Made by a program: the position numbers and the translations under genes. A stretch of DNA of 64,000 nucleotides. It comes from an uncultured Acidobacteriota bacterium (GTDB lineage: Bacteria; Actinomycetota; Acidimicrobiia; Spongiisociales; ZC4RG35). Position 1 is the first letter of the stretch, and every line of letters begins with the position of its first letter. A model generated the notes under the pieces. It ran no database searches. It saw only the letters and a program-made list of their open reading frames with translations, and was not told the DNA's origin. The stretch spans positions 347,400 to 411,399 of the forward strand of contig CAWHEU010000022.1 in the NCBI GenBank assembly GCA_963828465.1. Direction: 5' to 3'. Of the stretch, positions 1,592 to 48,929 are shown one piece after another.

Positions 1592-2169
1592 TCCCTCGTT
1601 TGGTCGTCGCCTCGAAGAACCCCGACAAGATCGCGGAAATAGAGGATGTGCTGAGGGAGGTGGGTCTTGCCGGTGAGATCGTCCGGGGCCTCGACTGGCC
1701 GGATGTCGAGGAGACAGGAGACACGCTCGAGGACAACGCCCTTCTGAAGGCGCGTGCTGTGGCGGAAGCCGTGGGGCTTCCCGCCTTGGCTGACGACACC
1801 GGCCTGGAGGTGGATTCCCTCGGCGGTCTCCCCGGGGTGAGGACGGCGCGATTCGCCGGACCGGGAGCGTCCTACCGGGACAATGTCGAGCTCCTGTTGG
1901 AGACGTTGGATGGAGTGGATGATCGACGGGCCCAGTTCCGGACAGCTGTGGCCCTGGTCATGCCTGACGGGTCTGAGATCGTGGTCGACGGTGCGCTCGA
2001 TGGGGTGATCACCGAAACCCCCAGGGGCGACGGCGGGTTCGGCTACGACCCCGTGTTCGAGGTCGAGGATCGGACATTGTCAGAGATGGGAGTGGCCCAG
2101 AAGAACACCCTGTCTCATCGGGCCCGGGCACTGCGAGCGTTGGCGGAGGCGCTCGGGATCGAGCGGTGA
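1588..2169 (+). CDS. rdgB: non-canonical purine NTP pyrophosphatase (RdgB/HAM1)
   Basis: [27 protein letters not shown] motifs; ATGA overlap with rph. Confidence 0.9.
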
Positions 2170-3426
2170 CGGAAGGGCCTCTCCGCGTCGTCATCGTCGG
2201 TGCTGGTTTTGCGGGTCTCAATGCTGCCAAGGCGCTGCGCCAGGAACCGGTTCACATCACGATCGTCGATCGGCGGAACTTCCATCTCTTCCAGCCGCTT
2301 CTCTATCAGGTGGCGGCGGCGGCGCTGAATCCGAGCGACATCGCCTATCCGATTCGCTCGATCTTCCGCCGACAGGAGAACGTCAGGAGCGTCCTCCTCG
2401 CCGAGGTCACGGGGATCGACCTCTCGGATAAGACCGTGAGCCTGGACGATGCCTCGGTCCTGCCCTACGACTATCTGATCCTCGCTACCGGGGCGACCCA
2501 TTCCTACTTCGGTCACGACGACTGGGAACAGATGGCACCCGGGCTGAAGACCCTCGAGGACGCGCTGCTTCTGCGGCAGCAGGATCCTGGCCGCTTTCGA
2601 AGAGGCAGAGCGCAACCCGGACGATGCCGATCGCCTGCTCACATTCGTCGTGGTCGGTGGCGGGCCGACCGGGGTGGAGTTGGCGGGGGCACTGATCGAG
2701 ATCGCAGTCCACTCACTGGGGAAGGAATTCGACGTGATCGACCCGACCCGGGCACGCGTTCTTCTGGTGGAGGGAGCGCCGCATGTGCTGCCCGTCTATC
2801 CGGAGGACCTTTCGGACAGCGCCCGACGTCAGTTGGAGACCCTCGGCGTGGAGGTGCTGACGGGAACCATGGTCAGCGAGATCGACGAAGGGGGAGTCAC
2901 CCTCAGTGACGGCCGACGGATCGAGTCGGGACTGGTGCTGTGGGCCGCCGGTGTCCAGGCATCGAAGCTTGGGGACATGCTCGGGGTGGAGACGGACAGA
3001 ACCGGTCGGGTGCCGGTCGAGGGCGATATGTCGGTCCCGGGGCACCGAGAGGTGTTCGTCGTCGGTGACCTCGCCACGGTTCCAGGTGTCCCTGGTGTCG
3101 CCCCAGCGGCGATGCAGATGGGCCGGCACGCCGGTCGCATGATCGAGGCCGACCTTCGGATGCGATCGAGGTTCCCATTCCACTATCGGAACAAAGGCGC
3201 CCTCGCCACCATCGGGCGGGCGAGGGCGGTGGCGGATTTCGGTCAGGTCAGGTTCGGCGGTTTCCTGGCTTGGCTGGCGTGGCTGGCCATCCACATCTTC
3301 TATCTGATCGGCTTCCGCAACCGGGTCCTCGTGCTGATCTCGTGGGCCTGGAGCTATCTCACCTTCCGCCGCGGAGCGCGGATCATCACCGGAGTGCCAC
3401 GACTGCCGGAAAAGGGCGAGCCGTGA
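2166..3426 (+). CDS. ndh: type II NADH dehydrogenase (NDH-2), interrupted by a +1 frameshift near 2580
   Basis: VVIVGAGFAGL first Rossmann motif (ORF 2166-2909) and VVVGGGPTGVELAG second Rossmann motif (ORF 2650-3426). The expected LRQRILAAFEEAER segment is split across frames at cagcagg. Confidence 0.85.
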
Positions 3427-3514
3427 TGGTGCGGGTGAGAGGATTTGAACCTCCACGACCTTTCGGTCACAGGGACCTAAACCCTGCGCGTCTGCCAAGT
3501 TTCGCCACACCCGC
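3427..3514 (-). tRNA. tRNA-Leu (anticodon TAG), long variable arm, CCA encoded
   Basis: Hand-folded: acceptor GCGGGTG/CACCCGC, anticodon loop TTTAGGT, T-loop GGTTCAAATCC, ends CCGCACCA. Confidence 0.8.
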
Positions 3515-3540
3515 GTGTGGTGGAACATTGTCCCATGACA

Positions 3541-3567
3541 CAAGCCCTCGGTCTGACCGAGGGCTTG
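3541..3567. terminator. perfect 11-bp hairpin between two tRNA genes (processing or terminator element)
   Basis: caagccctcgg-tctga-ccgagggcttg. Confidence 0.4.
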
Positions 3568-3570
3568 TTG

Positions 3571-3644
3571 TAGGCCGCGTGGGACTCGAACCCACAACAC
3601 CCGAGTTAAGAGCCCGGTGCTCTAGCCAATTGAGCTAGCGGCCC
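3571..3644 (-). tRNA. tRNA-Lys (anticodon CTT)
   Basis: Hand-folded: D-arm GCTCAATTGGCTAGAGC, anticodon stem-loop CCGGG-CTCTTAA-CTCGG, T-arm GTGGGTTCGAGTCCCAC. One G-U pair in the acceptor stem. Confidence 0.7.
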
Positions 3645-3655
3645 GCGCTGGAAGG

Positions 3656-4372
3656 TTAATACCGGTAGTCGGGAAGGCTCAGACGGTCTGCTACGACCTC
3701 GATCCAAACGATCGTTCGCTGCCATGCATCGGAGCACCGCCGCATCTTGACGGTGCAAACACCGTGTCGGAGATGGTTTTTTCGGTGCCCGGTGCCTTTC
3801 GGCTTGATGAAGGTCTTGTGGAAGTTGGCATTGTTCAGACCAGTCTCTGCGCGCCAATAGGACCTCGCTGCGCCTTCATCATTGCCCTCGTGCAGATGGA
3901 GTTGGAGCGAGAAGTCGGCAGCGGGATCCAGATAGGTCCGGATCCAGTAAATGAACAGACGCAGGGCGCGGGGATCGGCGTTCGCCAGCGTGAGATGATT
4001 TCGGGTCTTCGCACCTTCGGCCCAATAGAGGACAGCACCTGCAACCCAGAGAGGGTCTGTCATGAGGTCAGGAGTCTGAGAAAGTGCAGCGACACGCACG
4101 AGCGAGATCTCGGTGCGTCGTTTCCTGTTCGTATCCCGCGGTATGCCCTCCCGCGACCCGGACCGCGCCCGGATCGCTTGCATCTTTTCCTCCGACAACC
4201 TCACATCGCGACACCAAGTCGCAAGGGTCGATTTTGGCACCGGGATCAGGTCCATGATCTCGCCATAGGAGAGCCCGAGACGCCGTAGGTCCTTCCCCAG
4301 CTCGGACCGCTCCCATCTCGACAGTCCGTCCCACCCCTCGATCCGGGCCCGAAATTGGATCCCCAGCTCCAT
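3656..4372 (-). CDS. hypothetical protein with an N-terminal transposase-like HTH (LSYGEIMDLIPVPKSTLATW); lower-GC islet gene between tRNA clusters
   Basis: Single 238-aa ORF flanked by tRNA genes on both sides. GC is visibly lower than the surroundings. The HTH resembles IS3/terminase-type HTH; the C-terminal H/C-rich segment is unassigned. Confidence 0.5.
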   Translation of the reverse strand: MELGIQFRARIEGWDGLSRWERSELGKDLRRLGLSYGEIMDLIPVPKSTLATWCRDVRLSEEKMQAIRARSGSREGIPRDTNRKRRTEISLVRVAALSQTPDLMTDPLWVAGAVLYWAEGAKTRNHLTLANADPRALRLFIYWIRTYLDPAADFSLQLHLHEGNDEGAARSYWRAETGLNNANFHKTFIKPKGTGHRKNHLRHGVCTVKMRRCSDAWQRTIVWIEVVADRLSLPDYRY

Positions 4373-4432
4373 AGTTCGACCATATGAGTGAGGTGGGACA
4401 GGAATCGGGACGCAAGTACGCTGACCCGATCA

Positions 4433-4506
4433 CGGGCTGTGGCGCAGCTTGGTAGCGCGCTTGCTTTGGGAGCAAGAGGCCGTCGGTTCGAATCCGACCA
4501 GCCCGA
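4433..4506 (+). tRNA. tRNA-Pro (anticodon TGG)
   Basis: Acceptor CGGGCTG/CAGCCCG, anticodon stem-loop CTTGC-TTTGGGA-GCAAG, T-arm GTCGGTTCGAATCCGAC. Confidence 0.8.
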
Positions 4507-4530
4507 CCGGGGCTTTACAATGACGTGTCC

Positions 4531-4603
<73 letters not shown>

Positions 4604-4638
4604 GAATGGGTCGCCCTCGGGGACAGACCTAAGCCCTC

Positions 4639-4712
4639 GCCCCTGTAGCTCAATTGGATAGAGCGGCGGACTTCTAATCCGCAGGTTGGGGGTTCGAGTC
4701 CTCCCGGGGGCG
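4639..4712 (+). tRNA. tRNA-Arg (anticodon TCT)
   Basis: GCCCCTG TAGCTCAATTGGATAGAGC, anticodon stem-loop GCGGA-CTTCTAA-TCCGC, T-arm GGGGGTTCGAGTCCTCC. Confidence 0.8.
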
Positions 4713-4737
4713 CGAAGGTAAGACCCATTCGATACAT

Positions 4738-4816
4738 GGTGGCCGTAGCTCAGCCCGGTTAGAGCACCTGGTTGTGGTCCAGGAAGTCGCGGGTTCGAAT
4801 CCCGTCGGTCACCCCA
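4738..4816 (+). tRNA. tRNA-His (anticodon GTG) with encoded G-1 and 3' CCA
   Basis: G-1 + GTGGCCG acceptor, anticodon stem-loop CCTGG-TTGTGGT-CCAGG, discriminator C, CCA present. Confidence 0.8.
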
Positions 4817-4820
4817 GGGG

Positions 4821-4846
4821 AAGGGCGCAGGGATGCGCCCTTCTTC
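4821..4846 (+). terminator. rho-independent terminator after the tRNA cluster
   Basis: aagggcgcagggatgcgccctt hairpin followed by TTCTTC. Confidence 0.6.
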
Positions 4847-4865
4847 ATGACAACCAGGAAGACGA

Positions 4866-6299
4866 ATGACAACAACAGTCACAGAGACAGGCCCGTTCGA
4901 GCGTCTGGTCACCTTTCAACTAACCGACGACCAGATCACCGCCGGCAAGGCTGCGACCGCTCGGAAGCTGTCCCAGGACATGAAGCTGAAGGGCTTCCGG
5001 CCGGGCAAAGCGCCGTTGCCCGTGATCGAAGCGGCAGTAGGCCCAGCCCGATTGCGAAGCGAAGTGATAGATGACCTCGTTCCGCCGGCGCTGAGCGAGA
5101 TCCTCAACGACGAGGAGTTGCGCCCGGCTGTTACTCCCCAACTCGAAGCACTGAACGACGTCGATGGCGGAGTCGAGGTCGAGGTCAAGGTGACCTTGTG
5201 GCCCGAAATCGACCTACCCAAATATCGGGACCGCGAGGTCGAAGTGACGTCACCCGTGGTCACACCCGAAGAGCTCGACACCCAGGTCGAGCGCATGCTC
5301 GAGCAGTTCGCCACCGTGGAGGAGGCAAACCGGCCTGCGGCGTCCGGTGATTTCGTCTCCGTAGACGTCAAGGCAACCAAGGATGGCGACTCGGTAGATG
5401 GGGCTAACGCCGCAGATCTCCTCTATGAGGTCGGCTCTGGTCTGTTCGTCGAGGGAATCGATGAGCTCCTCGAAGGTGCCGAGCCGGGGACGGTGCTCAA
5501 CTTCGAGGCTCCGTTGCCTGTCGGTTTCGGCGACCGTGCCGGGGAGCAGGTCGGTTTCGAGGTGATCGTCAACGAGGTGAAGGAGCGGATCCTCCCCGAG
5601 CTCGATGATGCATGGGTCGACGAGAACACCGAGTTCGAGACAGTCGAGGAGCTGAAGGCAGAGCTGGGGGAGCGGCTCGCCGAGGCAAAGTTGCAGTCTG
5701 TCTCACGTCAATACGCCGAGAGAGCGCTCAGCACTCTCGTCGATCAGGTGGATATCCAGCTGCCGGAGGGATTGGTCCGGTCGGAGATGGACGACCACCT
5801 TCATCGGTTCGTCCATCGTCTAGAGGACAGCGAGCTGACCCTCGACGACTACTTCCAGGCTTCGGGAATCGATCAGGAACAGTTCCTCGACGACCTCCGC
5901 CAACAGGCAGAGATGTCCATACGGAACCAGCTGATTCTCGAAGCTGTAGCCAAGGATGCGGGGATCGATGTCACTCCTGAGGATGTCTCGGCGGTGATCC
6001 AGAACGCGGCGGCTCGTTCCGGCGACCCGGTCGCCTATCTGCAGGCCTTCCGCCAAAGCGGCCGGGAATTGGCGGTGGCCGGTGATATTCTCAGAAACAG
6101 GGCGTTGGACGCCATCCTCTCGGCAGCGAATCCGGTCGACGAAGACGGCAACCCGATCGATTTGAAAATGAATGTGACGGAAGTCGAGGCCGAGATCGTC
6201 GAGGCTGAGATCGTCGAGGCCGAGCCGGTCGGGGACATCCCGCCGGGCGAGGTTCCAATCGGCGAAGTGGTTGCGACAGCGGCGGAGGAAGAAGAATGA
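4866..6299 (+). CDS. tig: trigger factor
   Basis: Typical trigger-factor sequence; tig-clpP-clpX order; acidic repeat tail ([15 protein letters not shown]...EEEE). Confidence 0.9.
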
Positions 6300-6919
6300 A
6301 CGACCAGTTCCAGAACTATGTGATCCCCACAGTCTTCGAACAGACGAGTCGGGGCGAGCGCTACTTCGACATCTACAGCCGGCTCCTCAAGGACCGGATC
6401 ATCTTCCTTGGGACGCCGATCGACGACACCATCGCCAATTTGATCATGGCCCAGCTCCTCCACCTCGAGTCAGAGGACCCAGACAAGGACATCTTCCTCT
6501 ACATCAACTCCCCGGGAGGTTCGATCACCTCCTTGTTCGCCATCTACGACACCATGCAGTACATCAAGCCTGAGGTGAACACGGTGTGCATGGGCATGGC
6601 CGCCTCGGCGGCTGCGGTCATCCTCGCCGGTGGGGCGGTGGGCAAGCGCTACGCCCTGCCCCACGCCCGAGTCATGCTTCACCAGCCGCACGGTGGCGCC
6701 CAGGGCCAGGCCTCAGACATCGAAATCCAGGCCCGGCTCATAGTGCAGATGCGAGAGTCGCTGAACCAGATCCTTGCCGAGCACACCGGCCAGGAGCTGG
6801 AGAAGATCGCGACGGACACAGAGCGTGACTACTGGATGCTGGCCGCCGAGGCCAAGGACTACGGGGTCATCGACGGAATTCTCACCCGTCGGGAGCTTGC
6901 GGCGGTAGCCTCCACCTGA
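6296..6919 (+). CDS. clpP: ATP-dependent Clp protease proteolytic subunit
   Basis: GMAASAA (Ser), MLHQPHGG (His), ERDYWM (Asp) motifs; single clpP copy in the window. Confidence 0.92.
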
Positions 6920-6935
6920 GGAGGTTCAAAACTCG

Positions 6936-8198
6936 ATGGCACGACTCGGTGACGGCGGTGAGCTGCTCAAGTGCAGCTTCTGCGGCAAGTCTCAGAAGCA
7001 AGTCAAGAAACTGATCGCCGGGCCCGGCGTTTACATCTGCGACGAGTGCATCGATCTCTGCAACGAGATCATCGAAGAAGAGTTCTCCGCCACCGAGGAG
7101 ATCACCTTCACCGAGCTGCCCAAGCCGGTCGAGATCAACTCGTATCTCGACGACTACGTGGTCGGCCAGGAAGACGCCAAGAAGAAGCTCTCCGTCGCCG
7201 TCTACAACCACTACAAGCGGATCCGGGGCGGCGACGTCCAGCGCGATGTCGAGCTGCAGAAATCGAACATCCTCCTCATCGGCCCCACCGGGTCGGGTAA
7301 GACCCTTCTCGCCCAAACTCTCGCCCGCCAGCTCAATGTCCCCTTCGCCATCGCCGACGCCACGAGCCTCACCGAGGCGGGGTACGTCGGGGAGGACGTG
7401 GAGAACATCCTCCTCAAGTTGCTCCAGGCCGCCGACTACGACGTCAACCGGGCCCAACAGGGGATCATCTACATCGACGAGATCGACAAGGTCTCTCGCA
7501 AGGCCGAGAACCCGTCCATCACCAGGGACGTCTCGGGAGAAGGGGTGCAGCAAGCTCTCCTCAAGATCCTGGAGGGCACGGTGGCTTCGGTCCCGCCTCA
7601 GGGTGGGCGCAAGCACCCCCATCAGGAATTCATCCAGCTCGACACGACCAACATCCTCTTCATCTGTGCGGGAGCTTTCGGCGGCCTCGAGGACATCATC
7701 GCCAACCGAGTGGGACGGCGGGGTGTCGGCTTCGGTGCCGAGGTCCGCGGCAAAGCCGACGGGCGGCCATCCGACTTGCTCAACCAGGTCATGCCTGAGG
7801 ACCTGATGAAGTACGGGCTGATCCCCGAGTTCATCGGGCGTCTACCGGTGATGGCGACCGTGGAGGATCTCGACATGGACGCCCTGATCCGAATCCTGAC
7901 CGAGCCGAAGAACGCCCTGATTCGTCAGTACGCCCGCATGTTCGAAATGGACGAAGTCGAGCTCGTCTTCACGCCCGACTCGCTCGATGCCATCGCCGCC
8001 CAGGCCATCAAGCGGGGGACCGGGGCCCGCGGCCTCCGGGCGATTCTCGAGGAAGTCCTTCTCAACACGATGTATGACCTGCCTTCCCGCACGGATGTGG
8101 AGAGAGTCGTCATCGACCGCGACGTGGTCGCAGAGAAGGTCAACCCCACTCTGGTGCCGGCGCGCGTCGAGGACGGTCCAGCCGAAAAATCGGCCTGA
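6936..8198 (+). CDS. clpX: ATP-dependent Clp protease ATP-binding subunit ClpX
   Basis: N-terminal C4 zinc finger CSFCGK...CDEC; Walker [12 protein letters not shown]+ core. Confidence 0.93.
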
Positions 8199-8412
8199 TC
8201 GCTCGACCGCGACCACGGACTAGCGCACTCGGAGAAGTTCGTGTCAATGACACGGGCAGGTAACCCGCGCCCGTTAGGGTGTCGGCGACCGACCTCGGGC
8301 GGGCGGTCATAAGGGGAAAAAGGGAGGCCTTGATCCCGCGACCTGTATGCGGTCACCTGGGTCGTGGGGTAGCCAATGGTGAGACCGGCTCGTCCCAACG
8401 CGCAATGAAGGG

Positions 8413-9886
8413 ATGGGATTCATGCGGGTTAGCGTGCGACGGGTTCGCTTCGTCGTCGCAATGATGATGGCTCTGATGCTGGTTTCGTCGTTGTCGATCG
8501 TTCTCTCTGGAACGGCCTCAGCGACCACCGGGCAGCAAATAGACGGCGATCACCAAGGCGAGGACTGTACCGAGCTCGATGTCCAGGGCGCTGGAACGGA
8601 TCAAGAGGAATGTGAGCCTCGAGGAGTGTGATGATCTTGCCGTTCAGAGCTTTGGCGGTGGCGATCACGAGGATTGTGAGCCTGCCGAGGAGTGTCCGGA
8701 TCTAGCGGTTCAGAGCTTTGGTGGGGGTGATCACGAGGATTGTGAGCCTGCCGAGGAGTGTCCGGAGCTCACCACGCAGAGTCGTGGCGGTGGCGATGAT
8801 CCCAAGGATTGTGAGCCTGCCGAGGAGTGCCCCGACCTAGCGGTTCAGAGCTTTGGTGGGGGCGGTCACGAGGATTGTGAGTCCCCTGAGGAGTGTCCGG
8901 AGCTCACCACGCAGAGTCGTGGCGGTGGCGGTCACGAGGATTGTGAGTCCCCTGAGGAGTGTCCGGAGCTCACCACGCAGAGTCGTGGCGGTGGCGATGA
9001 TCCCAAGGATTGTGAGCTCCCCGAGGAGTGCCCGGAGTTAGCCGTTCAGACTGGTGGGGATCACGGTGATGATGAGGATTGTGATTCCGAGGAGTGTCCG
9101 GAGTTAGCCGTTCAGACTGGTGGGGATCACGGTGATGATGAGGATTGTGATTCTGAGGAGTGTCCGGAGTTAGCCGTTCAGACCGGTGGGGATCACGGTG
9201 ATGATGAGGATTGTGATTCCGAGGAATGTCCGGACCTAGCCGTTCAGACTGGTGGCAGTGATCACGGTGATGACGACGATGATTGTTCAGGCACCACCAC
9301 TACGACTTCGACCACCATGCCCACGGTCGCTCCACCAACCCTCCCCGAAGAGCTCGATCTGGCGGCGGTCGGAGCGGAGTGCTTCAGCGACATCCCGTAT
9401 CTGAGCTACACGATCGACTACCCGGCAGGGGAGTCGGCGACTATCACCTTCATCAATCCCGCTGGCGCCGACGTCGTCTACGAGGACGTGCCGCTGAGCG
9501 GAGCCGTGCTGTGGCCGGGGGCGAGCGAAACCCCTCCCGACTGGCCCGGCTGGATTCTCCAGGATGGAGTGTGGGTGGCGGCCGATGACGGGTTCCTCTG
9601 GGCGCGAGGAGAAATCGACGTTCTCTTCGAGGTGAACCCGAGCACGGTGCTCACGGTTTCGTATCCACAGTCAGGGGAAGCATGCGCCGATCCGGAGAAC
9701 ATCCCGGACGAAGTCGAAGGAACGGTGGTCACGCCACCCACGACGCCGGACCAGGTCGATGGTGTGGACGTGCTTCCGTTCACCGGTGTCCACGGGGGTG
9801 CGCTGGCAGCGGTTGCTTTTGCCGCTCTGGCTCTGGGTGGCCTGATGCTGCTCAGCGTTAGGAGGGGTGAGGCCGAGGACGGCTGA
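8413..9886 (+). CDS. LPXTG (LPFTG) sortase-anchored surface protein with about 10 acidic Cys-rich 21-22 aa tandem repeats; signal peptide in a separate frame (+1 shift near 8620)
   Basis: Signal peptide MRVSVRRVRFVVAMMMALMLVSS...ASA in ORF 8413-8631. Repeats EECP[DE]LAVQSFGGGDHEDCEPA and EECPELAVQTGGDHGDDEDCDS (8590-9290). A T-rich linker follows. C-terminal LPFTG + hydrophobic segment + RRGE tail. Confidence 0.75.
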
Positions 9887-9907
9887 ACCCGACCGTAAGT
9901 CGATGAC

Positions 9908-9939
9908 AAAGCCCCGGGATTAACCTCCCGGGGCTTTTT
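9908..9939 (+). terminator. rho-independent terminator
   Basis: aagccccggga-ttaacc-tcccggggc hairpin + TTTTT, immediately before the folC ATG. Confidence 0.75.
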
Positions 9940-9940
9940 C

Positions 9941-11224
9941 ATGAACTATCCCGACGCCCTTGCCTATCTAGATGGGCACATCACACACGGCATCAAGCCA
10001 GGCTTGGAGCGCATCAATCGGCTGCTCGACGACATGGGCCGGCCCGACGAGGGATACCCGATAATTCATGTGGCGGGGACCAACGGAAAGACATCCACGT
10101 CAAGGTTTGCCACCTTGCTCTTGGTCGCCCACGGCCTGAGCACCGGCACCTATACCTCACCCCACCTCCAGAACGTGGAAGAGCGGCTTGCGATCAACGG
10201 TCGGATGGCGACCGAGGAGGAGTTTGCCGTCGCCGTCTCCGACGTGGCCGCCTTTGCCGAACTGCGGGCCAAGGCCGGCGAAGAGCCCAACACGTACTTC
10301 GAGCTCACCACGGCTGCCGCCTTCGCTTTCTTCGCCGATCAGGCAGTCAACGCCGCAGTGCTCGAAGTGGGCCTGGGCGGGCGTCTCGATGCAACCAACG
10401 TCGTGGACGCCGAGGTATGCGTCCTGACCAGCATCGGCATCGAGCACACCGAATACCTCGGCGAGGACGTGGCCACGATCGCCGGGGAGAAACTCGCAAT
10501 CGCCGGGGCGAACGCGACCCTGGTCAGCGGACCGCTGCCAGACCTGGCCCTGGAAGTCGCCGATTCCCGCGCCCGTGATCTCGGCATCCATCACCGTCAC
10601 TACGGGAAGGACTTCTCCGTGCTCGACGCCGAGCGTGGAGTCAGGGGCTGGCTGGTGACAATCGGAGGCGCGGAGGACACATACGAGGACCTGTTCCTTC
10701 CCCTTCACGGAAGGTATCAACTGGTGAACCTGGCGAACGCTGTGGCTGCCACCGAGGCACTGCTGGGACGGAAGCTCGACGAAGAGGCGGTTCGAGATGC
10801 GTTGTCGGTCGCCACGGCGCCGGGTCGGATGGAGATGCTGGGCACCCATCCTCTGGTGATGGTCGATGGAGCCCACAACGCGGACGGCGTCGACGCCCTC
10901 GCCGAATCGCTCGACGAGGAGTACCCGACGACTCGATGGCAACTGGTGCTGGGCGTCATGGGCGACAAGAACGTGGAGGCAATGGTCGAAAGCCTCGAAC
11001 CGATGCTGGCCGGGATAATCGCCACGGCGCCCAAGGCGGAGCGGGCGGTCCCACCGTCAGTGCTCGCGGAGAGGATCAGGACCCTGACCGACGTGGCCGT
11101 GATCGAGGCCGAGGACGCGGAGATCGCCCTCGACATGGCTCGCGCAGAAGCCGGGCCTGAAGGGGCGGTTCTCGTAGCCGGCTCGCTCTACTTGGTGGGC
11201 GAGGCCCGGGCGCTGTTGATCTGA
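9941..11224 (+). CDS. folC: bifunctional folylpolyglutamate synthase/dihydrofolate synthase
   Basis: Mur ligase family; HVAGTNGKTST P-loop; folC-ndk synteny. Confidence 0.88.
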   Translation: MNYPDALAYLDGHITHGIKPGLERINRLLDDMGRPDEGYPIIHVAGTNGKTSTSRFATLLLVAHGLSTGTYTSPHLQNVEERLAINGRMATEEEFAVAVSDVAAFAELRAKAGEEPNTYFELTTAAAFAFFADQAVNAAVLEVGLGGRLDATNVVDAEVCVLTSIGIEHTEYLGEDVATIAGEKLAIAGANATLVSGPLPDLALEVADSRARDLGIHHRHYGKDFSVLDAERGVRGWLVTIGGAEDTYEDLFLPLHGRYQLVNLANAVAATEALLGRKLDEEAVRDALSVATAPGRMEMLGTHPLVMVDGAHNADGVDALAESLDEEYPTTRWQLVLGVMGDKNVEAMVESLEPMLAGIIATAPKAERAVPPSVLAERIRTLTDVAVIEAEDAEIALDMARAEAGPEGAVLVAGSLYLVGEARALLI

Positions 11225-34621: not shown

Positions 34622-35881
34622 TTGATGAACCAGGCCTTCGCATCGAGCAAACTTGCAGACTCCCGTCTCGCAAAGCCGCGTGCGAGGATCGCAGCCGTCG
34701 CTGGGCTCTTGGTACTGGCCGCCCTGGGAGCGCTGATACTCGTCAATGGGTTTCCCGACGATCCCCGATACTGGCGGACGTTCCTGCTGGGTTTGCTTCT
34801 GGCTGTTCTGGCATCTGTGCCGGCCGTCGTTCTCCTGAGGTATCTGGACCGGCGAGACCCCGAACCTTGGTCTACGGCAAGTATCGCTTATCTGTGGGGA
34901 GCGGTGGTGGCGACGGGGTTCGGGATCGTGCTTCGTGCTCGTTTGGTGGAATCCCTGTTCCTCGCCTTCGATGAAGCCGCGGGCCTCTTCCGACCCACGG
35001 AATCGGGCGTGCGGATCCACGTAGATCTCTTCGAATGGCTGGATACGGCCGTCGCCGCGCCGATGATCGAGGAGACGCTCAAGGCACTTGCTCTTGTCTT
35101 GCTCGTCGTAGTCTTTCCTGGCTTGGTCAACGGAGTGCGCGATGGTCTCGTCTACGGCGCCCTGGTCGGGCTGGGATTCGCCGTCGTGGAGGCCGCCGTG
35201 TACATCGGCTACTGGTACGCCAATGCCGGGTCATTTGCCTTCATCGGCGAACTGGTGCCACGTTTCGTCTTCTTCGGTGTCAACGGGCATCTCATCTACA
35301 CAGCCTTGTTCGGAGCGGGGTTGGGCATCGCCGTCTTGTCCGAGCGGGGATGGGTGGCGAAGACACTCACGATCATTGGAGGGCTCTTGTTAGCCATCTC
35401 AGCGCACGCCATGTTTAATGCTTTCGGCCCCGTGTCGTTGTTGATCACGGTCTCCATCTTTGGGCTTGACCCCGGGGTTGTGGACATCGGCGAGCTGTGG
35501 TGGCTGAGCGCTCTGGCGGTCCTGATGACGTATGCCTGGGCGTACGTGGTCCTCATCTATCTGACGGTGCGCAGTGGTTACTCGGAGCTTGACGTCATCA
35601 AGGCTCAACTCCCGAGGGAGGCACCTCCCGTGGTAACCATCGAGGAGCTCGAGTTGATCCAGACTGAGGGCTTGTGGCGGCTAAGGCGCGTGCCCGATCT
35701 ACCACGGCGAACGTCGATCTACTTGGTCAGAGCCCAGAACCGGTTGGCGTTCCGACGCAGCCTCATGGACCGAAACAGCCAGCCGATTGATTCCGACGAA
35801 GCGCTCGGTCGTCTGCGTGAGCTCATCCCCACGATCAGAGAGCGCTTTACCGGGGATCCTCGCACCGTTACTCCGGATTGA
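34622..35881 (+). CDS. PrsW family intramembrane glutamic protease
   Basis: Multi-TM protein; conserved EExxK (IEETLKAL) and FxxxH (HAMFNAF) motifs. Confidence 0.7.
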   Translation: MMNQAFASSKLADSRLAKPRARIAAVAGLLVLAALGALILVNGFPDDPRYWRTFLLGLLLAVLASVPAVVLLRYLDRRDPEPWSTASIAYLWGAVVATGFGIVLRARLVESLFLAFDEAAGLFRPTESGVRIHVDLFEWLDTAVAAPMIEETLKALALVLLVVVFPGLVNGVRDGLVYGALVGLGFAVVEAAVYIGYWYANAGSFAFIGELVPRFVFFGVNGHLIYTALFGAGLGIAVLSERGWVAKTLTIIGGLLLAISAHAMFNAFGPVSLLITVSIFGLDPGVVDIGELWWLSALAVLMTYAWAYVVLIYLTVRSGYSELDVIKAQLPREAPPVVTIEELELIQTEGLWRLRRVPDLPRRTSIYLVRAQNRLAFRRSLMDRNSQPIDSDEALGRLRELIPTIRERFTGDPRTVTPD

Positions 35882-35968: not shown

Positions 35969-36869
35969 ATGAAACGGAGCGCTTCGGCATTGGTGCTGGT
36001 CATGCTCGCGGCTCCTAAGCGCATGTGACGCCACGACCTCTCTGGAGGCCACACCGGGGGCGGTGAGGGCCGGTGTGTGTCCTCGACCCCATGATCAGGT
36101 GACAGGACCATCGGCCGATCAGGCTTGGGGCAGCGTGACTCCGGTGGCCAAGGGCGTCGAGTACACCGTCAACGCCGGATTCACTGCCACCATCTGCGCC
36201 AAGGGCGGAGACGACTACACCATCGTGACCGGTGTCGTCGGCCCGGCATCTGGATATGTCGAGACACCGGAGAACGATGGCGGGAACATCCCCGATCTGT
36301 CGCATTGGTCGGTGACGGACGTCACCGGCAGTTCGTCGTCGTCTAGTTCGTCGTCGTCTAGTTCGTCGTCGTCTAGTTCTTCGTCGTCTAGTTCTTCGTC
36401 TAGTTCTTCGTCTAGTTCTTCGTCTAGTTCTTCGTCTAGTTCTTCGTCTAGTTCGTCCTCGTCGTCCACCTCAACACTTGGCGGTGGGCCCCCGATCACC
36501 GAGGGCGGAGGGGGAGATCCCACGACCACTGCTGGCGAAGGTGGGGCCACCACCACGGTGGAGGTCGGCGCAGGTGGTCTGACCACGACGCCAGATGGCG
36601 AGGGTGAGGGTGGGGCTACGACAACCGTTGATGTCGGGGCCGGTGGTCTGACCACGACGCCAGATGGCGAGGGTGGGGCCGAGGGCGGGGGCACCCTGGA
36701 TCCAAGCCAAGAGACCAGCACCACGGGGGACGAAGTCGCAGGTGGCTCCGACGAAACCCTTCCCCGTACCGGCACCGGGCAGGTGTCGCTCAGTGGTCTG
36801 GCCGGGCTGTCGTTGGCGGCCGGAGCCATTCTCTTGCTGCTGCTCCGACGACGATCTCGAGAGGACTGA
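35969..36869 (+). CDS. LPXTG (LPRTG) anchored surface protein with poly-Ser and Gly/Thr-rich repeats; signal peptide in a separate frame (+1 shift between 35973 and 36026)
   Basis: ATG 35969 with an AGAAGGATGGAG RBS encodes MKRSASALVLVMLAAP. Body ORF 36063-36869 has about 60 consecutive Ser, GGLTTTPDGEG repeats, and LPRTG + TM + RRRSRED. Confidence 0.7.
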
Positions 36870-37985: not shown

Positions 37986-38308
37986 CACCGTTGTCCTTGC
38001 CCTTTCCTGGAAACCCATTTGCCTGTCCTGTGGATAATCCACAATTTCCGACGATTTGGGCATGGGCCGCATGGCCCATTCTTTCCACAACCATCTGAAC
38101 TAGTCCCCTGGACCCAGAGACATGCCGGGATTGCGGCGACCCTCGGCTAGATTGCCCCGCTTACCGCCGAACCTGGCATGTGCCGGGTGGGGGGAACCAA
38201 CCCCATCGGGGGCGAATCCCGGCATCGAGGGCCGGGTAGGGCGAACTTCCAGCCCGAGCCCGTCAGCTAACTCCCAAGGCGACAGAGGAAGAAAAAGAGG
38301 CACCGACT

Positions 38309-40423
38309 TTGGAGACGTTCAGCGCCGCCTCCCACGGTGAGGTCTTGCAACTCGTGATACAGATCGCGGTGTTGCTCGCCGCCGCCCGCTTCCTCGGTGG
38401 GTTGGCACAGAGGATGGGTCAGCCGGCGGTGGTCGGCGAGATCCTGGCCGGAGTGATCTTGGGCCCATCGATCCTGTCCGGACTGGTGCCGTGGATCGGG
38501 GAGTGGATCCTGCCCCAGACGGAGGCCCAGGGTTACATGCTCGAGGTCGTGGCCTTGATCGGGGTCATGCTGTTACTGGTCATAACTGGTTTCGAGACCG
38601 ACTTGGCGCTCATCCGGCGTCGCTTTGGAGTAGCTCTCGGAGTCGCGGTGGGCGGTCTCGTAGTCCCCTTCGTCACGGGTTTGGCCCTGGGATTTGCACT
38701 GCCAGAGAGCCTTCTCGTCGACCCATCGGATCGAACGGTTTTCGCCCTCTTCGTGGCCACCGCCCTTTCCATCTCGGCGATCCCGGTGCTGGCCAAGATC
38801 CTGATGGACCTCGACCTCATGCGGCGGGAGTTCGGTCAAACGGTCCTCGCCGCCGGAATGATCGATGACATCACAGGCTGGACGATGCTGGGGGTGGTCA
38901 CCGCCCTGGCCAGCGCCGAGGCCATCACCGCCGGTTCGGTAGTGCTGACCTTCGCCATGGTGGCCATATTCATCCTGATGACGATGACAGTCGGGCGATT
39001 TGTCGTCGAGAGAGGACTGGGCCTGATTCAGGACCGATTCCGGGGTCGGGACGCCATCCTGACTTTGGTGGTCGTGCTCGCATTTGCCTGGGGTGCCTTC
39101 AGCCAGGCGCTCCGGCTCGAGCCGGTGATTGGAGCGTTTGCCATCGGCATCCTTTTCGGTCGTCTGCCGCGACTTCCCACGGACGTCGTCCACAAGCTGG
39201 AGAGCATGGCCTTAGCCGTCTTTGCTCCGATCTTCTTCGCGGTGGCGGGCCTCAAGGTGGACATCCGCGCCATCCTCCAGCCCGACCTCATCTTTGTTGC
39301 CGCGCTGGTGATCCTGATCGCCACCTTCGGCAAGGTCGCCGGCGCTTACGTGGGGGCCAGATATCTCTCGGGCCAGGACCACTGGTCTGCACTGGCCTAT
39401 GGCGCCGGTCTCAACGCACGTGGGGCCGTCGAGATCATCATCGCCACCATCGGGCTCTCGCTGGGGATCCTGACGACCGAGATGTTCTCCATCATCGTGC
39501 TCATGGCTGTGGTGACGTCCATCGCGGCGCCCGCCGGACTTCGGTATTGCCTGGCGCGGGTCCAGCCTGGCGATGAGGAGGAGTTGAGATTGGCCCGTGA
39601 GGAGGTGCTGAAAGGCAGTTTCCTCGCCGGGTTGAAACGGGTCCTGGTGCCGGTCAGGCCTCGGATAGGTCAAGTGGGCACGCAGACGATCCAGGCGGTG
39701 CTGGTGGCCCGCCTCGGTGAGGCCAGCGACATCTCGACCACGCTTCTGGCCGTTGCCGGGGATCAGGACCGCGTTCTCGCCGGCGCCTATGTCAACTCGC
39801 TCCGCGCCGTCTTCAGGGATCGGGGGACCACGACACGGATCGTTTCCAGCCAGGATCCGGTGGAGGCGATCCTGCACGAGGCTGAAGCCGACTATGACCT
39901 GCTGGTCATCGGCACGCCCACGATGAGTGGCTCAGGCCAAGGAGTGTTCGGGCCGGTCATCGACGATCTCATCAAGCTCTCCCGCACCCCGACCCTGGTG
40001 GTGAGAGGAGAGAACGTCCCCGAAGACTGGGCTCCCAGCCGGATTCTGGTCCCGGCTAGTTCCAGCACGAGCTCCCGAAACGCTGCGGACCTCGCCTTCG
40101 CCATCGCCGGGGCGGACGCAGTGGTGACCGGGGTGCATGTGGTGACGCCGTCTCGGCTCTCGGGAATGCGGCCCAACGTCGCGCTCGACGTGACAGCCGA
40201 ATTCGAGATCCTCGCCACACGGATGGGCCAGCATGTCGAGACCGAGGTTCGCGAGGCGGATGACATCGAAACAGGGATCCTCGAAGCCTTGACTGAATTC
40301 GATGCCGACCTGCTGGTCCTGGGCACCAATGTCCGTGCCGGCACCACGCACCTGCACCTCGGCCCGCGTGTCGAGTATCTGACCCGGCTGGCGCCCTGCC
40401 CTGTCGTGATCTTGAACAGCTAG
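38309..40423 (+). CDS. cation:proton antiporter (CPA2-type) fused to tandem universal stress protein domains
   Basis: About 400-aa polytopic Na+/H+-exchanger-like N-terminus; two C-terminal USP-like alpha/beta domains (LLVIGTP..., LLVLGTN...). Confidence 0.75.
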   Translation: METFSAASHGEVLQLVIQIAVLLAAARFLGGLAQRMGQPAVVGEILAGVILGPSILSGLVPWIGEWILPQTEAQGYMLEVVALIGVMLLLVITGFETDLALIRRRFGVALGVAVGGLVVPFVTGLALGFALPESLLVDPSDRTVFALFVATALSISAIPVLAKILMDLDLMRREFGQTVLAAGMIDDITGWTMLGVVTALASAEAITAGSVVLTFAMVAIFILMTMTVGRFVVERGLGLIQDRFRGRDAILTLVVVLAFAWGAFSQALRLEPVIGAFAIGILFGRLPRLPTDVVHKLESMALAVFAPIFFAVAGLKVDIRAILQPDLIFVAALVILIATFGKVAGAYVGARYLSGQDHWSALAYGAGLNARGAVEIIIATIGLSLGILTTEMFSIIVLMAVVTSIAAPAGLRYCLARVQPGDEEELRLAREEVLKGSFLAGLKRVLVPVRPRIGQVGTQTIQAVLVARLGEASDISTTLLAVAGDQDRVLAGAYVNSLRAVFRDRGTTTRIVSSQDPVEAILHEAEADYDLLVIGTPTMSGSGQGVFGPVIDDLIKLSRTPTLVVRGENVPEDWAPSRILVPASSSTSSRNAADLAFAIAGADAVVTGVHVVTPSRLSGMRPNVALDVTAEFEILATRMGQHVETEVREADDIETGILEALTEFDADLLVLGTNVRAGTTHLHLGPRVEYLTRLAPCPVVILNS

Positions 40424-46495: not shown

Positions 46496-48929
46496 TTGAC
46501 CATGATGTCGTATGACCACCAGGCGATCGAAGCGAAATGGCAGGACCGATGGGAGTCGGAGGGCGTGTTTCACACCACCGAAGACTCGACCAGGCCCAAG
46601 TTCTACAACGTGGCCATGTATCCCTATCCGTCGGGGGAGCTGCACATCGGCCACGTCCGCAACTACACCTACATCGACCTGATCACCCGCTACAAGATGA
46701 TGCAGGGCTTCAACGTCTTGAGCCCTATGGGGTGGGACAGTTTCGGGCTCCCGGCCGAGAATCTGGCGATCGAAACCGGCATTCATCCGAGGGTCAGCGT
46801 CGAGGCTCAAATCACCCGAATGAAGGAGCATTTCCGGAAGCTGGGGGCCGCATTCGACTGGAGCCGGGAAGTGGCGAGCCACGACCCTGCCTACTACCGA
46901 TGGGACCAGTGGCTGTTCCTCGAGCTCTACGACCGTGGTCTCGCCTACAAAGCGACCGCGCCCGTCAACTGGTGCCCCAAGGATCAGACCGTGCTCGCCA
47001 ACGAGCAGGTAGTGGATGGCGCCTGTGAGAGATGCGGGACGCTGGTCGAGAAGCGAAACCTCGCCCAATGGTTCTTCAAGATCACCGATTACGCCGATCG
47101 ACTCCTCGATGACCTGGATCATCTCGACGACTGGCCGGACCGGGTCCGCACGATGCAGCGGAACTGGATCGGCCGGTCCGAGGGCGCCCGGTTCAAGATT
47201 CCGATCGACGGCATCGATGCCTCGTTCGATGTGTTCACCACCCGGCCCGACACGATCTTCGGGATGACATTCTGCGTCCTCGCTCCCGAGCACCCACTTG
47301 TCGAGGAGTTGATCTCGGGCACCGACGTCGAGGCCGAGGCCAGGGAGTACATAGCTCGGGCGGCCCGTGAGTCGGAGATCGAGCGTCTCGCCGAGGGCGA
47401 GAAGACAGGGGTATTCACCGGTCGGTTCGCCATCAACCCGGTGGACGGGAAGCCGGTTCCGGTCTACATCGCCGACTATGTGCTGATGGGCTACGGCACC
47501 GGGGCGATCATGGCCGTCCCGGGTCAGGATCAGCGTGACTGGGATTTTGCCGTCAGGTATGGCCTCGACATCGTTCGCACGGTCGACCCGGGCCCTGAAT
47601 GGGAGGGCGAGGCCTTCCTCGGGGACGGGCGGACGATCAATTCCGAGTTCCTGGACGGTCTCGACCGGGCCGGGGCAAAGGAGCGGATCATCACCTGGCT
47701 CGAGGAGCAGGGCATCGGCGAGGGGACGATCCAATACCGGCTCCGTGACTGGCTGATCTCAAGACAGCGTTACTGGGGATGTCCGATTCCGATGGTCGAA
47801 TGCCCCGAATGTGGGCTGGTCCCAGTTCCACGAGATCAGCTTCCGGTGACCCTGCCCGAGGTCGAGGACTATGCCCCGAAGGGACGCTCACCTCTGGCGG
47901 CCGTCGAGGATTGGGTGGCCACGACGTGTGCCCAGTGTGGGGGACCGGCCAGCCGGGAGACCGACACCATGGACACCTTCGTCGACTCGTCCTGGTACTA
48001 CTTCAGGTACACCGACCCCCACAACGTGGAGGCCATCTTCGACCGGGCCAAGGCCGAGTACTGGATGCCACTCGATCAGTACATCGGTGGGGTCGAGCAC
48101 GCGATCCTCCACCTTCTCTACGCCAGGTTCATCACCAAGTTCCTCAATGACATCGGGCTGAGCCCGGTCACCGAGCCCTTCAGGCGGATGTTCACCCAGG
48201 GGATGCTCGTGAAGGACGGGGCAAAGATGTCCAAATCCAAGGGCAATGTCGTTCCACCAGACCGCTATTACCAGGAGTACGGCGCCGATGCCCTGCGCTT
48301 GTTCGAGCTGTTCGTGGGGCCGCCGACCGACGACGCCGTATGGAATGACAGCGGTGTTCCCGGCACGAAGCGGTTCCTCGACCGGGTTTGGAAGATGGGC
48401 ACCGCCGATCATCCCTTCGTGGACCGCGGCAGCGAACGATGACGATGCCGTGCTGATGGCGGAGACGCATCGCGCATTGAAGCGGGTCACCGAGGACATC
48501 AACCGATTCCACTTCAACACCACGGTCTCCTCGCTGATGTCCCTGGCCAACGTGTTCCAGGAGTACCTGGGCCGCTCGCCGGTCGAGAAGACCTTCGACG
48601 AGGCTTACCGGATCATGGTCCTGATGCTGGCGCCCGCCGCACCCCATGTCGCCCACGAGTTGTGGGAGATGAGGGGGATGGGATCGATGCTGGCGGAGGA
48701 ACCCTGGCCCGGGTGGGACGAGTCGCTCGTGGCGGAGTCGACCGTGACCATGGTGGTCCAGGTCAACGGGAAGGTGCGCGACAGGGTCGATGTGCCGGCT
48801 GACATCACCGCCGAGGAGGCGGAGCGGGTGGCGCTCGACCTCGACAAGGTCCAGGGTTGGATCGACGGCGCCGTGGTGCGCAAAGTCATCGCCCGTCCAC
48901 CGAGCGTCATCAACTTCGTCGTGGGGTGA
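46496..48929 (+). CDS. leuS: leucyl-tRNA synthetase, +1 frameshift near 48435
   Basis: HIGH-type class I motifs (PYPSGELHIGH), KMSKS; the C-terminal anticodon-binding part continues in ORF 48246-48929. Confidence 0.88.

Follow-up and report, generated by a model that had tools for sequence, protein, structure and literature searches.

A c-di-GMP-II-GAG riboswitch precedes a putative sortase-anchored acidic repeat protein between clpX and folC in Acidimicrobiia

Overview

Here, we describe a gene located between clpX and folC in a 64,000-nucleotide stretch of DNA (the window; G+C content 63.4%) from an assembly deposited as an uncultured Acidobacteriota bacterium, the GTDB lineage of which lies in the Acidimicrobiia of the phylum Actinomycetota (GCA_963828465.1, contig CAWHEU010000022.1, positions 347,400 to 411,399). 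The gene (8413-9886) encodes a protein with a Sec-type signal peptide, acidic Cys-containing tandem repeats and a C-terminal LPFTG sorting signal, and it is directly preceded by an aptamer of the c-di-GMP-II-GAG riboswitch family (RF03169; c-di-GMP, cyclic dimeric guanosine monophosphate). This riboswitch, which was overlooked in a preliminary description of the region, is the most informative feature of the locus. We regard it as reasonably probable that the locus specifies a signal-induced, sortase-anchored acidic repeat adhesin expressed from behind the RF03169 aptamer, and that a single inserted base at about position 8620, which splits the reading frame, is an assembly error. The coordinates of all features are given in Table 1.

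The riboswitch and its predicted expression platform

The RF03169 match reaches 58.9 bits (E = 1.2e-10), the gathering score of the family being 40, extends over model positions 1-86 of 86 and outscores two other members of the c-di-GMP-II clan, whose matches were suppressed. It has the same helices, pseudoknot and GAG signature (GGUGAGACCG) as the family (clan CL00127), with no structural difference; within the pseudoknot, CGGUCACC pairs with GGUG-AG-ACCG at eight of eight pairs. An aptamer is present at the same position in 13 of 14 related Acidimicrobiia loci, the fourteenth being cut off upstream, and in all orthologues it lies on the same strand as the gene, with 16-25 nt between its end and the start codon. 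Among close relatives alone, 97% of the structure is paired, with two compensatory pairs, which are located in P3. A broader set was obtained by scanning metagenomes for the aptamer core with a pattern in which the two covarying pseudoknot positions were left free. At least 120 loci were found, and RF03169 was recovered in 20 of 20 metagenomic loci that were rechecked with Rfam. For the analysis of covariation, 85 aptamers were aligned to a model built in this work, which does not contain the pseudoknot. In this alignment, 94.9% of cells are paired, both sides have changed in 17 of 26 pairs, and all eight P3 pairs covary; the covariation score is 0.419 compared to 0.130 for shuffled data (0/500), and slid controls gave values of at most 0.08. 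The pseudoknot pair at columns 57/147 is AU in 36 sequences and GC in 35. Because of this covariation, including that of a pseudoknot pair outside the model, the aptamer is considered to be real and under selection.

No terminator was detected between the aptamer and the start codon. The 3′ strand of P1 has the capacity to pair with the Shine-Dalgarno (SD) region, and the minimum free energy fold of 8300-8440 contains this CUCGUCCC/GGGAUGGG helix, the SD being the one that belongs to ATG 8422. The SD is nearly a copy of the P1 5′ strand, so that both would compete for the P1 3′ strand. Complementarity between the anti-SD and the SD is also found with other letters, namely CCUGUCCC/GGGAUAGG in L094, L135, L137, L142 and L191, GCCCGCCCCUUG/CAAGGAGGCGG in L098, and CCCUCCCC/GGGAGG in L133 (L numbers denote individual related loci); these differing pairs read as covariation for the predicted alternative helix. 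We infer from this arrangement a ligand-induced translational ON switch, because the ligand stabilizes P1 and the pseudoknot and should in this way release the SD. In the ligand-free state, the P1 3′ strand would pair with the SD and translation would be blocked; upon binding of the ligand, for which c-di-GMP or a related signaling nucleotide is the candidate, P1 and the pseudoknot would form, the SD would be released and translation would begin.

Architecture of the surface protein

With the reading frame repaired, the translation contains all the parts that the preliminary description had named, i.e., a signal peptide, about ten tandem repeats of 63-66 bp, a Thr-rich stalk, a C-terminal globular domain and an LPFTG-TM-RRGE sorting signal. 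The signal peptide is of the Sec type (MGFMRVSVRRVRFVVAMMMALMLVSSLSIVLSGTASA/TTGQQ) and begins at ATG 8413 or, more likely, at ATG 8422, which lies 8 nt after GGGA; homologues begin with MGFMRVS or MRVSV and read directly on into the repeats. According to Tandem Repeats Finder (TRF), the array at 8599-9248 has a period of 66 bp, 9.8 copies and 81% matches; its last four copies are also reported as an array of their own at 9021-9280 (3.9 copies, 93% matches). The repeats comprise ten full units of 21-24 amino acids (aa) and a degenerate unit 0 in the first open reading frame (ORF), the whole span being 8560-9292. Each unit contains two Cys, as previously proposed, and 7-9 acidic residues, whereas the proposed single His per unit is absent from the GGGDDPKDC units and is not conserved in homologues. 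The C-x5-C spacing that had been assigned to the repeat occurs across CEPAEEC junctions and is replaced by C-x4-C across CDSEEC junctions. There are 87 Asp and Glu versus 5 Lys and Arg residues in the repeat region, and 114 Asp and Glu, 6 Lys and Arg, and 24 Cys in the mature protein.

The same repeat occurs in 30+ homologues with 2-11 copies. When four-unit blocks of 12 proteins are aligned, the only invariant positions are the eight Cys, one Glu and one Gly, with His varying. Searches with single sequences and with profiles found no matching family in Pfam or NCBIfam (repaired protein and repeat region; Pfam to E ≤ 10 for the repeat region) and no chain among PDB sequences (phmmer and profile), in line with the earlier statement that the repeat family was not recognized. 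Every protein in the databases that bears this repeat has the C-terminal domain as well and comes from an Acidimicrobiia-type assembly. The 22-aa acidic two-Cys repeat appears to be an undescribed module confined to this clade. Cys residues of exported actinobacterial proteins usually form disulfides. Since the invariant Cys are even in number and lie in an exported actinobacterial protein, the two Cys of each repeat are most likely disulfide-bonded, and the repeats may represent disulfide-stapled loops on a polyanionic chain.

The sequence directly after the repeats reads TTTTTSTTMPTVAPP and is followed by a domain of about 115 aa; a Thr-rich linker is found in all homologues. An AlphaFold prediction for the domain, based on a 21-sequence alignment, gave a ten-strand all-beta model with a predicted local distance difference test score (pLDDT) of 84-94 in the core. 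The best Foldseek matches of this model in the PDB are generic immunoglobulin (Ig)/FN3-like folds and are weak (E ≥ 0.015, template-modeling score ≤ 0.41); scans of the C-terminal part against Pfam and NCBIfam gave no significant match, no Pfam model covers the domain, and a PDB sequence search with the domain profile yielded nothing meaningful. A profile search of 1.84 billion representatives retrieved 958 cluster representatives (732 at E ≤ 1e-10). The 150 matches listed are 125-6288 aa long, and the domain lies near the C-terminus in most listed full-length proteins. It is present in Isoptericola, Microbacterium, Oerskovia, Demequina, Mumia, Cellulosimicrobium and Agromyces, where LPxTG or LAxTG follows it, and some representative proteins also contain SpaA-like, DUF11 or adhesive domains. 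In the protein described here, it is the most conserved part. The model suggests that the C-terminal domain is an Ig-like beta-sandwich belonging to an unannotated family that adjoins sortase signals across Actinomycetota.

The low-complexity segment that follows is conserved in position and variable in sequence, and probably spans the cell wall. After LPFTG comes a 25-residue hydrophobic stretch and then RRGEAEDG at the extreme C-terminus. The hydrophobic segment and RR are conserved along with LPFTG, which is found in 31 of 32 Acidimicrobiia-type homologues (P0001-P0032), the exception, P0018, being a frameshifted product; the NCBIfam LPXTG models do not match the target protein. From this architecture, the product would be exported via its Sec signal peptide and covalently attached to the cell wall via LPFTG-TM-RR. 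From the wall outwards, it would consist of the Pro/Thr wall-spanning segment, the Ig-like domain, the Thr-rich linker and, at the tip, about 11 very acidic repeats. The most likely role of the polyanionic tip would be to bind cations, to attach to surfaces of positive charge (mineral or matrix) or to alter the surface charge, and the protein would act as a signal-induced adhesin or aggregation factor.

Genes behind related aptamers

Downstream of the at least 120 metagenomic aptamers, a crude first-ORF call gave 93 ORFs of at least 90 aa. A signal-peptide-like N-terminus was found in 69 of these, and LPFTG with a membrane segment at the end in 17. The largest target family comprises 16 proteins of about 240-290 aa, and a C-terminal LPFTG signal is present in 14 of them; the other families consist of small secreted proteins, and one RF03169-controlled protein contains SdrD_B and SpaA-type adhesin domains. 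In metagenomes, the GAG aptamer stands before many genes for secreted or LPFTG-anchored proteins. A narrow covariance model, which divergent aptamers may escape, gave no RF03169-like match in 67 loci where genes from outside the Acidimicrobiia encode this C-terminal domain.

The order clpX-[surface protein]-folC is conserved throughout this Acidimicrobiia lineage in the related loci compared, the best relatives are approximately 93% identical, and relatives show almost no DNA differences over the leader and the signal peptide. L137, which shares synteny with the window, including a tRNA cluster 3.5 kb upstream, has three consecutive aptamer-LPFTG genes in the clpX-folC slot (4907-9386), and L007 has two between clpX and folC (1689-4543), the second of which is the acidic-repeat gene. 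It appears that the clpX-folC slot of this lineage hosts at least one riboswitch-controlled surface-protein cassette, rather than an accessory insertion of one genome. The preliminary description had noted that a surface protein takes the place of valS, the gene that occupies this slot in Streptomyces; the location stands, but it is a lineage-wide arrangement and no oddity of this genome.

Several further observations concern the genes behind these aptamers. Two to four RF03169 aptamers in a row, each before its own secreted or LPFTG-anchored gene, occur in L137, L007, L100, L103, L094 and L140. A small secreted family of 94-119 aa (signal peptide ...LAGE[IV]TGNGK, two Cys) is a recurrent target and was found in L092, L113, L126, L127, L141, L156, L175, L182, L193, L196, L198 and L201, and a second recurrent family comprises proteins of 107-269 aa (MHSKRRLL...HITKEC). 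In L094 (4687-6318), an RF03169-controlled LPFTG protein of 543 aa contains three copies of a different acidic, Cys-containing repeat, PPGDCEENQQEGFSTLSSIPDNDPCEP; acidic two-Cys repeats may be a recurring theme of this regulon.

Reading frame and assembly quality

The region 8413-9886 had been treated as one protein-coding stretch, which it is not: it has 1474 nt, no multiple of three, and contains two ORFs in different frames, 8413-8631 (72 aa) and 8579-9886 (435 aa, +1 frame). The signal peptide is present only in the first, whose product is MGFMRVSVRRVRFVVAMMMALMLVSSLSIVLSGTASATTGQQIDGDHQGEDCTELDVQGAGTDQEECEPRGV followed by a stop, and the second, without a signal peptide, holds the repeats, linker, domain and anchor. 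The break was located by alignment with the syntenic relatives L001 (Acidimicrobiia metagenome-assembled genome, MAG, GCA_029240695.1) and L002 plus ten orthologues. From the Pro codon to TGT there are 6 nt (CCN GAY GAN) in 10 of 10 orthologues versus 7 nt in the window, and in P0001-P0005, P0008, P0011, P0012 and other homologues the same signal peptide is continuous into the repeats. Without the extra C, the window would contain a single ORF of about 490 aa.

At least five single-base frameshifts are present in the window, approximately one per 13 kb. Besides the target, these affect rph (+A at 1199) and ndh (+C at 2580, leaving two ORFs each with one half of Pyr_redox_2), both relative to L002; leuS, broken at about 48430 (catalytic and editing domains in 46496-48442, anticodon-binding domain in 48246-48929); and a second LPXTG gene, broken at about 36020 (signal peptide in 35969-36028, remainder in 36063-36869). 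Wherever L002 allows a comparison, the window has gained a single nucleotide, +A in rph and +C in both ndh and the target. Contigs named in the short-read style (NODE_, k133_, scaffold) carry intact orthologues of 349-440 aa, and several orthologues on assemblies with 'contig_N'-style names are interrupted inside the repeats. Since the leuS break cannot be real in a living cell, the assembly carries indels, and the extra C at 8620 is therefore most probably another assembly error. With such a frameshift rate, the gene calls of this window need correcting before interpretation.

The frameshift sites of ndh and leuS both lie within ...CGGCAGC..., a shared context which may point to a systematic base-calling error. 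Programmed frameshifting at 8620 was considered and rejected, as the site lacks a slippery motif, none of the orthologues has the shift and unrelated genes contain 1-nt insertions of a similar kind. In the public MAG of L002, a chimeric ORF (9285-10121, P0033) combines part of folC with the C-terminal end of the surface protein and is followed by a second complete folC, and tig and clpP are fused into one ORF (3874-5928); both suggest that this MAG is locally misassembled and contains indels.

Alternative explanations

Two alternatives concern the sequence itself. If the frameshift were genuine, the strain would carry a true pseudogene or a gene subject to phase variation, yielding a 72-aa secreted fragment and/or a cytoplasmic 435-aa product. 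The sequence as given does carry the +1 shift, the second LPXTG gene is likewise broken just past its signal peptide, and several related assemblies are broken within the repeats; however, the single-base frameshifts of rph, ndh and the essential leuS in the same window point to assembly error, the riboswitch, signal peptide, repeats, domain and anchor are otherwise intact and conserved, no break occurs in orthologues whose assemblies have short-read-style contig names, and no slippery or simple-sequence tract that phase variation might use exists at the site. We thus consider a genuine frameshift distinctly unlikely, and a polished reading of GCCTGAGGAG, without the extra C, at 8620 would count against a pseudogene. 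That the repeat array or its copy number is an artefact of collapse or expansion during assembly is very improbable. The last four units are 93% identical in DNA, the assembly has indel errors, and L002 holds an obviously chimeric folC/surface-protein ORF, but an array with the same unit occurs in 30+ independent assemblies, which bears out the existence of the array as first described, the units in the window differ enough (81% matches) for unique placement, and the array is short (700 bp).

The others concern function. A repeat array that primarily binds metal (Ca/Zn/Fe) or is redox-active, as suggested in the preliminary description, with Cys, His and carboxylates as ligands, would fit the two invariant Cys and the 7-9 acidic residues per unit, the very strong negative charge, the lack of a predicted fold in the absence of cofactors, as expected for metal-dependent folding, and a composition that recalls Ca-binding thrombospondin (TSP) type-3 repeats. 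We nevertheless find it unlikely, because His is not conserved, CxxCH and CxxC motifs are lacking, hhalign gave a probability of 0.1% against a verified TSP type-3 array, no metal-binding family was matched in Pfam, NCBIfam or the PDB, and exported actinobacterial Cys are, as said above, generally oxidized to disulfides. As only the Cys and not the His are invariant in this exported actinobacterial protein, disulfides would be favored over thiolate ligands. It is plausible that carboxylates bind cations, which is compatible with the adhesin that we propose, and it is only the thiolate-, His- or redox-based form that is disfavored. The repeats could also be an inert, extended and charged spacer, with the Ig-like domain binding or the protein simply modifying surface charge and hydration; this would agree with a repeat number of 2-11 among orthologues, with the predicted disorder of the repeats, and with the Ig-like domain being the most conserved part and common to many other surface proteins. 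However, adhesin spacers normally lie between the wall and the functional domain, whereas here the repeats are distal and the Ig-like domain is wall-proximal, as it also is in proteins with many different N-terminal parts, and the invariant Cys indicate a structural constraint on the repeats, which makes a spacer role appear doubtful. Finally, the GAG variant might sense a molecule other than c-di-GMP and switch on a regulon of LPFTG and small secreted proteins in soil Acidimicrobiia and other Actinomycetota, frequently as successive riboswitch-gene cassettes in the clpX-folC slot, with the disulfide-stapled, polyanionic Cys repeat as a new cation- or mineral-binding module outside the cell, a bolder proposal to which we assign a low probability.

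Several points weigh against the signal-induced adhesin that we favor. With regard to the switch, searchable papers state nothing about the ligand of the GAG variant, and Weinberg and colleagues reportedly raised, in PNAS in 2017, the possibility that GAG-type variants sense a different signaling molecule. The isolated anti-SD helix is no more stable than shuffled sequences (z = -0.23), and the SD is invariant within close orthologues, the anti-SD covariation coming solely from distant representatives. With regard to anchoring, Pfam Gram_pos_anchor (PF00746) scores 12.3 bits against a cut-off of 20 (E = 0.17), and motif searches of the window found neither a sortase (TLxTC) nor a GGDEF/EAL gene, so that sortase-dependent display in this organism, as earlier deduced from the second LPXTG protein, is not supported from the window. 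An AlphaFold prediction for four repeats with a 20-row alignment was uninformative (pLDDT 36), and no structure was obtained for the repeats, which makes the proposed disulfides and binding tentative. Moreover, the site at 8620 is not a homopolymer.

Comparison with known systems

The closest precedent appears to be the class-II c-di-GMP riboswitches of Clostridioides difficile, which lie upstream of two sortase-dependent adhesin genes, CD2831 and CD3246, and act as ON switches, adhesin production rising when levels of the messenger are high (PMC6366702). A c-di-GMP-II-type aptamer (Cdi-2-3 and Cdi-2-1 in C. difficile) occupies the 5′ leader in both systems, and the surface protein encoded behind it depends on sortase there and is predicted to do so here. 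The differences are that C. difficile belongs to the Firmicutes and the organism described here to the Actinomycetota; that the aptamer is of the parent class there and is the GAG variant, with c-di-GMP as a candidate ligand, here; that the platform acts by transcription termination there and is apparently translational (SD sequestration) here; and that the passenger domains are unrelated, with no adjacent PPEP-1-like protease gene here. In Paraclostridium, tandem c-di-GMP-II aptamers precede surface-anchor genes (COG4932) (PMC9481103). The same aptamer class thus controls wall-anchored surface proteins, with several aptamers per leader there and a single aptamer per gene here, the units being consecutive in L137 and L007. 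What may be added to RF03169 here is the link to LPFTG and secreted genes, together with the clpX-folC location and the putative anti-SD design.

Among surface proteins, LPXTG/LAXTG proteins of Microbacterium, Isoptericola, Oerskovia and Demequina share the Ig-like domain of about 110 aa (LWPGA/WPGW/two Cys) before the sorting signal with 40-50% identity, but differ in their N-terminal parts, lack acidic Cys repeats and gave no RF03169-like match with the narrow model mentioned above. The staphylococcal Sdr/MSCRAMM proteins also combine a signal peptide, acidic repeats, Ig-like modules and LPXTG; in those, however, Ser-Asp repeats are wall-proximal and the binding domain is distal, whereas the order is reversed here and the repeats contain Cys. 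TSP type-3 repeats wrap Ca2+ and are disulfide-linked. TSP_3 (PF02412) resembles the repeats described here in being extracellular and acidic, in its unit length of about 22-23 aa and in having two Cys per unit within a C-P...Q...D-x-D...C pattern, but the DxDxDG calcium motifs are absent here and there is no detectable homology. Homology was rejected on the hhalign result given above, for which the comparison array was that of human TSP-1, confirmed as TSP_3 with a score of 207.7 bits.

Organization of the locus and other features of the window

The locus is a single-gene unit consisting of an upstream element, the riboswitch, the ORF and a terminator (Table 1); the spacer of 215 nt between clpX and the target houses the aptamer. 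The upstream element is present before every orthologous aptamer, with stem changes that compensate each other, and across the group it has the motif TTAKGGTG and a GC-rich hairpin. In the window, the hairpin folds with -27.5 kcal/mol (z = -1.65). The element is predicted to be, possibly, a promoter -10 box plus a 5′-terminal hairpin. Because it is duplicated with each of the two aptamers in L007 (at about 1650-1688 and 2815-2853), it would be part of the riboswitch unit and not of clpX. The terminator hairpin has a stability of -31.7 kcal/mol (z = -6.75), which was equaled in 0 of 200 shuffles; a simple promoter/terminator scan made no call, even for this hairpin.

Table 1. Features of the surface-protein locus and its neighbors (positions in the window)
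Feature	Position	Strand	Remarks
tig	4866-6299		window neighbor of the target
clpP	6296-6919		window neighbor of the target
clpX	6936-8198		gene preceding the surface-protein unit
Conserved upstream element	8274-8308	+	TTAGGGTG (TANNNT-like) motif, then GC-rich hairpin GACCGACC...GGGCGGGCGGTC, just 5′ of the aptamer
c-di-GMP-II-GAG riboswitch aptamer (RF03169)	8314-8396	+	found with cmscan, directly upstream of the ORF
P1	8314-8317/8393-8396 and 8322-8324/8389-8391	+	aptamer helix
P2	8326-8328/8372-8374	+	aptamer helix
P3	8335-8342/8361-8368	+	aptamer helix
Pseudoknot	8350-8357 with 8378-8381 and 8384-8387	+	part of the aptamer
Expression platform (predicted)	8389-8418	+	P1 3′ strand CUCGUCCC (8389-8396) can pair with the SD region GGGAUGGG (8410-8417)
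ORF part 1	8413-8631	+	start, signal peptide to about 8523, short TTGQQIDGDHQG segment, degenerate repeat 0 (8560-8619), premature stop
Signal peptide	8413 or 8422 to about 8523	+	Sec-type, MGFMRVSVRRVRFVVAMMMALMLVSSLSIVLSGTASA/TTGQQ
Single extra base C	8620 (about)	+	+1 frame shift; window reads GCCT-C-GAGGAG
Ten tandem acidic repeats	8621-9292	+	[DE][DE]-C-P-[DE]-L-[AT]-[VT]-Q-[ST]-x-G-G-G-[DG]-[HD]-x-D-C-[ED]-x(1,2); from translation and TRF
Thr/Pro-rich linker	9293-9352	+	TTTTTSTTMPTVAPPTLPEE; from translation
Ig-like all-beta domain (model)	9353-9694	+	two invariant Cys (residues 16 and 117 of the 9335-9787 translation), motifs LWPGA and DWPGW
Pro/Thr/acidic low-complexity segment	9695-9772	+	ENIPDEVEGTVVTPPTTPDQVDGVDV; pLDDT < 50
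Sorting signal	9773-9886	+	LPFTG (9773-9787), hydrophobic GVHGGALAAVAFAALALGGLMLLSV, RR and acidic tail, stop
Intrinsic terminator	9908-9940	+	12-bp GC-rich hairpin and U tract, directly before the folC start (9941)
folC	9941-11224		gene following the surface-protein unit; then ndk, mreB, mreC, mreD, PBP2 and rodA

The third-position G+C content of ORF 8579-9886 is 0.64 compared to 0.80-0.86 in the adjoining housekeeping genes, and its codon usage is atypical, perhaps as a result of the repeats and low expression, or of cassette exchange between genomes. The MAGs of L003, L007-L012 and L015 are titled 'uncultured Acidobacteriota bacterium' and near-identical loci are titled Acidimicrobiia or Actinomycetota; the Acidobacteriota labels are probably wrong.

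The second LPXTG protein (35969-36869, +) exists as described earlier, with an LPRTG motif and a Gram_pos_anchor match of 22.9 bits, although not as a single ORF, owing to the frameshift mentioned above. It contains an unbroken run of about 54 serines and Gly/Thr-rich repeats and, with its frame repaired, a lipobox-like LSAC; no riboswitch was found upstream, and a gene for a PrsW-family intramembrane protease (34622-35881) lies just before it. Another riboswitch is located at 38155-38296 (+), where RF00379 (c-di-AMP, cyclic dimeric adenosine monophosphate) matches with 83.4 bits directly upstream of 38309-40423 (+), which encodes a 704-aa protein of the Na+/H+-exchanger family fused to two universal-stress-protein domains, a typical pairing of c-di-AMP with cation transport.

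Implications

Riboswitch control of sortase-anchored adhesins, which is documented in Clostridia, would here extend to uncultured soil Acidimicrobiia and to the GAG variant. The Ig-like, wall-proximal family predicted here comprises approximately 1000 sequence clusters across Actinomycetota and is undescribed, with no Pfam model. The genes downstream of the GAG aptamers, which are mostly secreted or LPFTG-anchored, tie this variant to cell-surface remodeling and offer candidates for ligand and reporter assays. If the GAG variant does sense a molecule other than c-di-GMP, the gene set of this regulon would provide a direct handle for identifying the ligand of an orphan riboswitch.

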